Position numbers and translations under genes: made by a program. 64,000 bases of DNA from a virus, in UHGV virus genome UHGV-0307316. One strand, written 5' to 3'. Shown piece after piece: positions 26,953 through 28,790 of this stretch. Positions within the stretch are counted from its first letter, which is position 1; every line of letters begins with the position of its first letter. The notes beneath the pieces were generated by a model that was given only the letters and a program-made list of their open reading frames with translations, ran no database searches and was not told where the DNA came from.

Positions 26953-26996
26953 CAGACTTTATAGCTTATTTGGCAGATTTTTTATAAGGCTACTGC

Positions 26997-27390
26997 CATC
27001 CTTCCATACCACACCTCACCCAACCATACCATGCCTTACCAGACCGCACCTTGCCTCATTAAAAGACCCTCTTAAAAGACCTTTTAAAAAGGTAAGTCTC
27101 ATTTTAATGTAGCTGAGACTAACTACCCGCACCGAACCTCACCTGACCTGACCGCGCCATACCTAACCGCGCCTTACCACACCTCACTTAAAAACCCTAT
27201 GAGATACTCTATCGAATATAATTTAAAGACTCTTAAGTGATGTAATCGAATTTTTATGTAGCTCCGATTAACTACCCGCACTTTACCAAACCTCACCCTA
27301 CCCTACCAGACCTTACCTAACCGCGCCGTACCTCATTAAAAGACCCTCTTAAAGACCTTTTAAAAAGGAGCCTCCGAAGAGGCTACCTAG
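26997..27390. repeat. Intergenic repeat module A (two sub-copies): phased CC/ACC 5- and 10-bp repeats plus conserved hairpin cores
   Basis: Cores CATTAAAAGACCCTCTTAAAAGACCTTTTAAAAAGG and TAAGTCTCATTTTAATGTAGCTGAGACTAACTACCC; ACC every 5 bp across 27121-27185; paralogous to 28510-28790. Confidence 0.8.
27362..27386 (-). terminator. Rho-independent terminator for - strand gene 27396-27836
   Basis: On - strand: AGCCTC-TTCG-GAGGCT hairpin followed by CCTTTTT. Confidence 0.55.
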
Positions 27391-27395
27391 TCAAC

Positions 27396-27836
27396 TTAGA
27401 AAGGTTTTCTACGTTGCTTGTTAATGTTAGCTTTCATAGCAGCTAAATGGTTTTGCTGTTCAATTAGTCGTGAACGTTCTTGATGGCTAAGTACCATAGT
27501 GTTCACATTCTCAATCGCTTGAGTGGCTTGCTTTAAAGCACGACCAATCTTACCAGACATTTTACGTTTTGCAATAGTTGCTTGATGCTTAGGTTCAACC
27601 ACACGATAACCAACACCCATTGAAGCAACCAGATAAATCTTCTCTTCTTTAAGAAGCTTCTCAATAAACTTCTCAAGTCGATTTAAGCGTGTAAGTGCGT
27701 AAGCTTTCATTTCATCTTCGTACTTAACAATGTCACCTTGATAAGTTGGCTTCACAATACCTAAGAAGGTATCCATCTCAGAGTGTGATACAGTGTCACC
27801 GTAACTAAACTTTGCTGCTAATGCTTTTGTATTCAT
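27396..27836 (-). CDS. Hypothetical protein (repeat-bracketed cassette)
   Basis: 146 aa ORF; basic C-terminus; flanked by repeat modules. Confidence 0.4.
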   Translation of the reverse strand: MNTKALAAKFSYGDTVSHSEMDTFLGIVKPTYQGDIVKYEDEMKAYALTRLNRLEKFIEKLLKEEKIYLVASMGVGYRVVEPKHQATIAKRKMSGKIGRALKQATQAIENVNTMVLSHQERSRLIEQQNHLAAMKANINKQRRKPF

Positions 27837-27838
27837 AA

Positions 27839-28441
27839 TTAAACGTTACCTTCTGAAATAACTTCTACAGAAAAACGACCAAAGCGTGGACGCCAATCAC
27901 CTACACCACAAAGGTTACCAGCATTTTCCAGAACCATCAGAAGTTCCTCTCTGGTGATTTGCTCTTCATCGAACATCAAACCAAACTCTACAGACCAGTC
28001 ACGGAAGATTGGACGGTAACTCATAACTCGTGCTGTACCAATCTTAACAGACTTAGCATAGATAAAGTCTGGATTCTTAGCAAGTTCTTGTGGGTTTGCT
28101 GGACAGTTCTTGATAGTCATTGGGAAGACTACATCTGTCAGCATAATGGCTCGGTCAATTACCTTACCAAGTTTGTTGAGTTTTGCACCAGACTTGATAC
28201 AAGCCTCAATCATCTCACCGTTCATAACAAAACCTAACTGCTCATCGTAGTAACAGGAAGTTACTAGTTGGCTTTCTGCTAAGAGCGCATAGTCTTCGTC
28301 AGTCTTTTTACGTTTACTGGACAGAGACTTGTGATATTTTGTCAGAGGGTTTAATGGGTCTGACAACGTATCGTTATGGCTCAAGAAAGGACGAGTACCA
28401 GTGATTTTGATATTTAACAGTTTCATAGCATTTAGCTCCAC
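27839..28441 (-). CDS. Hypothetical protein (repeat-bracketed cassette)
   Basis: 200 aa ORF immediately upstream of 27396-27836. Confidence 0.4.
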
Positions 28442-28509
28442 ACTTTAGTTGATTGTTAAGTTGTTTGTAAAGAACCCTCAACAGAAGACTCTTTAGAAAC
28501 TTGGTAGAT

Positions 28510-28790
28510 TTTTAACGTGGATACTACCATCCACCCATACCGTGCCACACCACACCGGACCGTACCATGCCCAACCCTACTACACCAGACCTTATTAAAA
28601 GACCCTCTCCAAAGACCTTTTAAAAAGGTAAGTCTCATTTTAATGTAGCTGAGACTAACTACCCATACATTACCGCACCATATTATACCCTACCCCACCA
28701 TACTTCACTGCACCGAGCCACGCATTACATCACTTAAAAAACCTTTTCAAAGACTCTTAAGTGATGCTGGTGAGTACCCGTTGGTTTATG
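28510..28790. repeat. Intergenic repeat module B (paralog of module A)
   Basis: Shares the core GACCTTTTAAAAAGGTAAGTCTCATTTTAATGTAGCTGAGACTAACTACCC (28614-28664, identical to 27078-27128) and ATTAAAAGACCCTCT, plus CC/ACC-phased tracts and CACTTAA...TTAAGTG hairpin. Confidence 0.8.

Follow-up and report, generated by a model that had tools for sequence, protein, structure and literature searches.

The two intergenic repeat modules described here and the two genes that they enclose almost certainly make up a type II locus for Viral Interference Programmable Repeat (VIPR), complete in its parts, in a Felix O1-like phage. This CRISPR-like system of RNA-guided DNA silencing was first described in two 2026 preprints (bioRxiv 10.64898/2026.04.26.720920 and 10.64898/2026.04.26.720927). 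The window, by which we mean the whole stretch of 64,000 nucleotides that was analysed, comes from a Felixounavirus (Ounavirinae, Felix O1-like) with about 94% identity to Escherichia phage dune. Its VIPR locus is of an already known kind, an orthologue of the published SUSP1 system and ordinary for the clade. Real and biologically important as it is, the finding is already accounted for by the published VIPR work.

The reported components of VIPR are a small RAMP protein, Vipr, an accessory vap gene and the vrRNAs, in which 9–16 YNNGG repeats are followed by a 3' tail that is conserved; Escherichia phage SUSP1, also a member of the Ounavirinae, serves as the model (bioRxiv 10.64898/2026.04.26.720920). 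In SUSP1, expression of the vrRNAs as RNAs of ~100 nt, their co-purification with Vipr and DNA binding have been shown, as have the repression of GFP and of phage and the targeting of a satellite, the effect being target-dependent and exerted in trans (bioRxiv 10.64898/2026.04.26.720920, 10.64898/2026.04.26.720927). Cryo-EM of the VIPR complex revealed one protomer per repeat and an R-loop triplex on which the 3' pseudoknot forms a cap (bioRxiv 10.64898/2026.04.26.720927). The expression of the window vrRNAs, their 5' and 3' ends and their ability to repress are carried over from SUSP1 and would be expected to be the same here by analogy.

The locus and its two proteins

The sense strand of the locus is the minus strand, as it is for all neighbouring genes. 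Followed in this direction, the locus begins with the vrRNAs B1 and B2, continues with the vipr–vap1 operon and ends with the vrRNAs A1, A2 and A3. Judging from the open reading frames and from the synteny with SUSP1, this is a minimal locus, in which vipr and a single vap gene lie between long non-coding stretches, and replication genes surround it. [quoted passage not shown] The window has five guides and SUSP1 four because two vrRNAs instead of one are found upstream in the former.

In public records both enclosed genes are hypothetical and parts of the modules are merely labelled 'repeat_region'. An earlier reading made from the sequence alone (hereafter the sequence-only reading) had correctly placed two minus-strand genes between the modules, although the first of them probably starts at the ATG at 28426 and not at the GTG at 28441 as it had supposed. 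The ATG is the most likely start of vipr since it yields a product of 195 aa, in agreement with the SUSP1 and dune annotations. With this start, vipr (27839–28426, minus strand) encodes a RAMP (Cas7/Csm3-like) protein which, by analogy with its SUSP1 counterpart, would polymerise on GGY repeats. The window Vipr is identical to SUSP1 Vipr (PDB 36pp) at 190 of 195 positions (97.4%, E 1.5e-127). Its AF2 model, made independently of that PDB entry, has a pLDDT of 95.4, and the top 50 PDB matches of this model in Foldseek are all CRISPR RAMPs, mainly Csm3 and Cas7 (best 6ifl_F, E 5e-5), so far as a model can tell indicating a fold like that of CRISPR Cas7/Csm3. The residues reported to hold G1, G2, Y3 and the skipped base, namely H17, D177, R138, W178, E71, M72, C173, R179 and K33 (bioRxiv 10.64898/2026.04.26.720927), are all identical in the window protein.

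The second gene, vap1 (27396–27836, minus strand), encodes the VIPR accessory protein of 146 aa, which is identical at 144 positions (98.6%) to the product of the neighbour gene in SUSP1. It matched no Pfam family, and its AF2 model (pLDDT 95.7) gave no significant fold match in the PDB, only a weak, non-significant likeness to winged-helix proteins; the label 'DNA-binding' for Vap1 comes from the VIPR preprint (bioRxiv 10.64898/2026.04.26.720920).

VIPR is a recently described form of RNA-guided DNA recognition in which the code has gaps; an origin before that of CRISPR has been proposed, and the very small size of the system makes it attractive as a programmable repressor. Its relation to Class 1 CRISPR-Cas is visible in the RAMP fold, with Csm3 and Cas7 as the top structural matches, and, according to the preprints, in the polymerisation of protomers along a guide RNA and in a thumb that flips bases out periodically. 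In contrast to Class 1 systems, the window locus is devoid of a CRISPR array, cas1/cas2, a second RAMP and a nuclease. Instead of an array of identical repeats and spacers it contains only pentamer tracts with vrRNA leaders and tails, and no cas-type domains were detected in the nine neighbouring ORFs. The VIPR guide unit is also different, being 5 nt long with only 2 nt that pair while the target skips one base in three, and the guides are hard-wired genes of a system encoded by a virulent phage.

Guide arrays and pseudoknot tails

Both intergenic regions are dominated by five minus-strand GGYNN arrays with a period of 5 nt, each containing 10–11 variable pentamers and conserved terminal units. 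At these five arrays, and nowhere else in the 64 kb, the period-5 CC score is 8/8; the maximum in 50 shuffles was 5. Every vrRNA consists of a short conserved leader, a guide of 10–11 GGYNN pentamers and a conserved 3' tail that can be folded as an H-type pseudoknot; the leader is either of the TTAAGAGGGTCTTTTAATGA type or a CACTTAA...TTAAGTGA hairpin.

All five vrRNAs lie on the minus strand. B1 (28622–28719) has a guide of 11 pentamers at 28719–28665, a pseudoknot tail at 28664–28627 and a run of five T at 28626–28622. Its guide is the partly degenerate one, four units having lost the first G and one unit (AATAT) both of them. B2 (28503–28611) begins with the leader TGGAGAGGGTCTTTTAATAA, followed by 11 pentamers (28591–28537) and a pseudoknot tail (28536–28503). 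Downstream of the operon, A1 (27243–27352) carries the leader TTAAGAGGGTCTTTTAATGA, 11 pentamers at 27332–27278 and a tail at 27277–27243 which is a variant pseudoknot with the stem TAATCGGA/TTCGATTA. A2 (27086–27239) opens with the CACTTAA...TTAAGTG leader hairpin (27239–27184) and has 11 pentamers (27183–27129) and a tail (27128–27091) that leads into a T5 run at 27090–27086, and in A3 (26972–27075) the TTAAGAGGGTCTTTTAATGA leader is followed by 10 pentamers (27055–27006) and a pseudoknot tail (27005–26972).

The repeats that had been noticed from the sequence alone find their place in this organisation. The 51-bp exact repeat exists, but its true extent is 54 bp (27075–27128 = 28611–28664), and it corresponds to the tail of one vrRNA plus the beginning of the leader of the next. 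The hairpin AGTCTCA-N12-TGAGACT was found at 27097–27122 and 28633–28658, and the CACTTAA...TTAAGTG inverted repeat in both modules, as had been described. The motif ATTAAAAGACCCTCT (reverse complement of ...AGAGGGTCTTTTAAT) is likewise present in both modules and occurs three times; when 22 nt of this leader motif were searched for and no more than 3 mismatches allowed, there were 3 copies against 0 expected by chance. The second copy of the core in the module downstream of vap1 was also recovered, being ~70% identical in a repeat unit of 107 nt. What had been called the core is thus made up of the conserved tails and leaders, which are indeed there, whereas the hypervariable GGYNN guide tracts between them had been overlooked. 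Two of the functions then suggested were right in kind. The modules may be described as small-RNA genes, encoding five predicted vrRNAs of ~90–100 nt, and also as protein-binding arrays, as these vrRNAs would, on the SUSP1 precedent, be coated by the protein encoded between the modules.

The division into fixed and variable parts is conserved among relatives. We compared the window with 19 loci, chosen by a flanking protein 99–100% identical. Among these 20 loci the NN dinucleotides, the number of units (9–16) and the number of arrays per region (1–3) vary freely, whereas GGY, the period of 5 nt and the terminal units stay constant. In the logo of 68 unique arrays G1 is present at 79%, G2 at 96% and Y3 at 100% (T 88%, C 12%), with N4 and N5 being nearly uniform.

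The tails fall into two classes, and an H-type pseudoknot fits both. In the class ending with GGRWGGATGGYAG...CTRCC, 98.3% of cells are paired and four pairs are altered on both sides, for example GU/AC to AA/UU in stem 1 and U-A to C-G in stem 2. In the class starting with GGGTAGTTA, 99.0% of cells are paired and stem 2 contains three compensatory pairs. Controls with slid partners gave 25–48% pairing; these figures reflect few independent covariation events, and the structure was derived from the very sequences that were scored. The tail structure predicted from the sequence is in accord with the pseudoknot that has been described in SUSP1. After the type-1 tails comes TACC-TTTTT, and T runs are present after two tails only. 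The minimum free energy of the whole vrRNAs was no better than that of shuffled sequences (z −1.1 to +1.4); the RNA-fold check proposed in the sequence-only reading is uninformative, since a poor MFE is expected for protein-coated guides and for pseudoknots.

A search of the whole window against Rfam 15 at the gathering score gave 0 matches, so the vrRNAs are evidently absent so far from Rfam 15; the tRNA scan of the whole window also returned nothing. The repeats that the Felix O1 genome paper lists are different ones, and those found in the window are not among them.

Predicted satellite targets of the guides

If the window system works like that of SUSP1, one Vipr protomer would be bound to each GGYNN repeat, sequestering the GGY bases and presenting the NN dinucleotides. 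The latter would pair with one strand of double-stranded DNA, every third target base being skipped and no PAM being needed, and the resulting R-loop triplex would block transcription. The guides of the SUSP1 clade aim at a satellite that shares homologues of the tape-measure and baseplate-hub proteins with the phage (bioRxiv 10.64898/2026.04.26.720920), and those of the window probably serve to silence such a satellite integrated in E. coli chromosomes.

Of 5,426 complete E. coli genomes searched by BLAST with the SUSP1 hub gene, 474 contain the satellite element; BLAST with vrRNA tails, used to look for satellites in the 5,426 E. coli genomes via vrRNAs of their own, returned no match. Strains that carry the satellite include PAR, GB089, TL-14 and 20KM0223N. 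For the guide–target scan, nine satellite loci were taken from E. coli genomes with a hub-gene match. Each of them is an island of ~10–12 kb that encodes a large serine recombinase, a tape-measure protein and a hub protein, and the nine islands occupy several chromosomal sites. The satellite proteins are 65% (hub) and 27% (tape measure) identical to their homologues encoded in the window, and this shared homology of structural genes suggests that the satellite presumably parasitises the window phage.

Four of the five guides match the satellite at 18–20 of 20–22 positions (86–91%) when one base is skipped, none of the matches being perfect. The four predicted sites are at about 301247–301278 of NZ_CP013663.1, about 1333690–1333721 of NZ_CP012379.1 and about 1969322–1969350 of NZ_CP109601.1 and in the tape-measure gene of NZ_CP151045.1. 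Two of the predicted targets are in the leader of the structural operon: A1 matches 20/22 positions in satellite locus L142 (8561–8592), 57–88 nt upstream of the gene preceding the tape-measure operon, and A3 matches 18/20 in the corresponding intergenic region of locus L145. The other two are in coding sequences, with A2 matching 20/22 positions within the large serine recombinase gene (locus L141, 15858–15889) and B1 matching 19/22 within the tape-measure gene (loci L143 and L145). According to the coordinates, the skipped base at both coding-sequence sites is the wobble position of the codon. For B2 the best score among the nine loci was 17/22 (L141, 12222), which is at background level, and there the skipped base is not at the wobble position.

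The dependence on a skip of exactly one base is pronounced. With skips of 0, 2 or 3 the best guide scores in the nine satellite loci were 15–17. When the order of the dinucleotides was shuffled 200 times, the observed score was reached 0 times for A1, A2 and B1, twice for A3 and 23 times for B2. A larger set comprised 71 unique guides taken from 22 related loci; with skip 1, 48 of them had a match of at least 80%, compared with 0, 1 and 1 for skips 0, 2 and 3, respectively. The 1-nt skip rule and the targeting of satellites are thus replicated here independently, by computation alone and with guides that are not from the preprints, and the locus supplies concrete guide–target predictions for a Felixounavirus.

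The guides have no target in the phage itself within the 64 kb window of the ~88 kb genome, where the best skip-1 score was 16/22, i.e. background. Scans for exact patterns gave 0 matches for B2 in viral and genome contigs and 0 for A2 in viral contigs. A sub-pattern of nine dinucleotides from A1 had two viral matches, which we judged to be due to chance; their flanks were unmatched and they had no similarity to the satellites.

Flanking signals, probable cassette loss and other readings of the repeats

At its upstream edge the locus has a strong sigma-70-like promoter, TTGACA-16-TATACT (28797–28824, minus strand), with 11 of 12 consensus positions, which overlaps a leader hairpin GGTGAGTA...TACTCACC at 28808–28769 on the same strand. 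Both the promoter and the leader are also found in SUSP1 and in vipr-less relatives. On the minus strand, an intrinsic terminator, AGCCTC-TTCG-GAGGCT followed by a T run, lies after vap1 (27362–27388), and a 13-bp hairpin AAATAAGCTATAA/TTATAGCTTATTT (26924–26971) closes the locus; the promoter of the gene that follows, TTGACA-17-TATTTT, lies within this hairpin element. Of the vrRNA genes, A1, A2, A3 and B2 have no good sigma-70 promoter ahead of them, the one at the upstream edge being the only such signal. The earlier suggestion that the modules are duplicated promoter/terminator units is true at the edges only. That they serve solely in this capacity, organising the transcription of the neighbouring genes, is very improbable. 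The signals just listed, together with the TACC-TTTTT that follows the type-1 tails, speak for such a role, but the promoter and terminator elements cover fewer than 100 of the ~900 intergenic bases. The periodic hypervariable GGYNN arrays, the covarying pseudoknots and the skip-1 matches to the satellite would be left without explanation, and they already contradict this view as a complete account.

The sequence-only reading had also proposed to compare related phages for the cassette and for the copy number of the modules; both the presence of vipr/vap1 and the number of arrays per region vary. Among 260 records of related phages, 118 encode a Vipr at least 90% identical, and vipr/vap1 are absent from roughly half; in the vipr-less records the region measures ~1.4–1.6 kb against 3.1 kb in the window. 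The cassette is thus polymorphic across the large Felix O1-like group, and orphan guides remain where it is absent. Two vipr-less phages, finno and BPS17L1, were examined at the junction. In both, the promoter and leader of the upstream edge are joined directly to just one array, which is partly degenerate and has a tail of the type found in the last downstream vrRNA. This junction is the product expected of recombination (deletion) between the repeated leaders.

Such a junction, and the absence of the two genes from about half of the related records, could be taken to mean that the repeats are recombination sites that exist in order to move the cassette between phages, another suggestion of the sequence-only reading. 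We consider this to be scarcely probable as their function, even though the leader–leader deletion seen in the cassette-less relatives resembles what had been imagined. Ordinary homologous recombination would give the same junction from repeats that are there for a different reason, the RNA role of the repeats has been demonstrated in SUSP1, there is no recombinase or transposase in or beside the cassette, and the cassette has so far been found at this single genomic site only.

The orphan guides of finno and BPS17L1 are nearly identical to each other and had no match in the satellite loci scanned. We read the orphan guides of the vipr-less phages as putative relics. It is conceivable, if rather unlikely, that an orphan vrRNA may be loaded onto the Vipr of a co-infecting phage, or may titrate Vipr as an anti-VIPR decoy, and that the cassette is repeatedly lost and regained in Ounavirinae by homologous recombination via the repeated leaders.

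Our initial hypothesis for the arrays was a TRAP-like attenuator, in which a ring of 11–13 subunits would bind one triplet per subunit and control a hairpin and T run located after the array. In the trp leader of Bacillus, TRAP binds ~11 (G/U)AG triplets spaced at 5 nt, one per subunit of the ring, and causes attenuation in cis. The 5-nt period, the ~11–13 units with one protein subunit per triplet, the overlap of the last unit with the 5' arm of the next hairpin and the T runs after two of the tails are all reminiscent of this arrangement. The triplet in the window, however, is GGY where TRAP binds (G/U)AG, the nine neighbouring ORFs gave no match to a TRAP-family domain, and the adjacent protein is a RAMP, expected to assemble into a helical filament in which each repeat is bound by one protomer and to act through DNA recognition in trans, not a ring attenuating in cis. 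Furthermore, the NN positions carry target information for which an attenuator has no need. The hypothesis, which we now regard as barely credible, was dropped in view of the VIPR preprint and of the identity of the protein as a RAMP.

Equally implausible is a role of the arrays as DNA or nascent RNA, as an R-loop or G-quadruplex origin or as antisense Rho-loading (rut) sites: the GG at every 5 nt of the non-template strand, the C-rich and G-poor opposite strand and the replication genes around would suit it, but no evidence supports it, the G-U pairs and compensatory changes of the tails fit a minus-strand RNA, and the strict Y at position 3 and the information in NN would go unexplained.

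With the repeats understood as parts of a VIPR locus, the 'repeat_region' features in hundreds of Felix O1-like records can be given the label they should carry, that of vrRNA genes. Arrays of this appearance extend beyond the group: the pattern (GGTNN)6GG matched at least 120 contigs in IMG/VR, and among the matches listed many are in unrelated viruses whose arrays are complex in the same way.

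Presumed target satellites and the setting of the A1 site

The satellite family presumed to be the target of the window guides is present in 474 of the 5,426 complete E. coli genomes. At least four chromosomal integration sites are represented among the nine satellite loci analysed (L141-L149), namely yciI-tonB, ymdF-wrbA, lafU-dinB and the inside of a DUF72 gene in the yecN-yecD interval. A large serine recombinase is encoded by every copy, and the accessory genes (Dam-like methylase, HNH endonuclease) differ between copies. In the L142 satellite (8540-8610), the A1 target is in the loop that separates the two arms, AAAAAGCACAC...GTGTGCTTTTT, of a long inverted repeat. 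Since a sigma-70-like promoter is found about 250 nt upstream of this target and the ATG of the next gene 57-88 nt downstream, the A1 site is probably located in a transcribed leader.

One of the nine satellites, that of E. coli GN4751, possesses a vrRNA of its own (L146 4050-4123, minus strand). At least 13 GGYNN units make up its array, the tail shows covariation in stem 2 (GTCG/CGAC), and a strong terminator comes after the tail. No vipr gene is present in the annotation of this island.

The vipr start codon and the end of the locus

In the mechanical ORF list, vipr begins with a GTG at 28441 of the window and encodes 200 aa. The alternative start is an ATG at 28426, which GGAG precedes by nine bases; it yields a 195-aa product that agrees with the annotations of SUSP1, the model system, and of dune. 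At the other end of the locus, a 13-bp hairpin (26924-26971) lies 3' of the last vrRNA. The downstream 127-aa gene has the -35 box of its promoter inside this hairpin, so that terminator-like and promoter functions may overlap here.

Arrays in other phages and viral contigs

The Felix O1-like phages finno (Escherichia; L150 881-1312) and BPS17L1 (Salmonella; L151 881-1162), which lack vipr and vap1, carry a single degenerate vrRNA-like array of almost the same sequence, joined to the upstream promoter and leader and ending in a tail of the last-downstream type. The junction looks like a deletion between repeated leaders. No satellite target was found for these orphan arrays.

GGYNN arrays are also present in at least 120 viral contigs of IMG/VR (L020-L139). 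Many are long tandem tracts interrupted by a 4-nt GGCA unit (L020, L029, L053, L059) or by short spacers (L035, L046), often stopping immediately 5' of a ribosome-binding site and ATG; these are probably the array types, staggered and otherwise, that the VIPR preprint (bioRxiv 10.64898/2026.04.26.720920) describes.

A distinct near-invariant element, GGTTAGGTTAGGTAAGGTTAGGTTAGGTAAGGATA, was observed in several unrelated viral contigs (L021, L025, L033, L037, L055-L057, L060), often with the short palindrome tatccaaaatggata on its 5' side. Because it shows no hypervariability, it may be something other than a GGYNN array.
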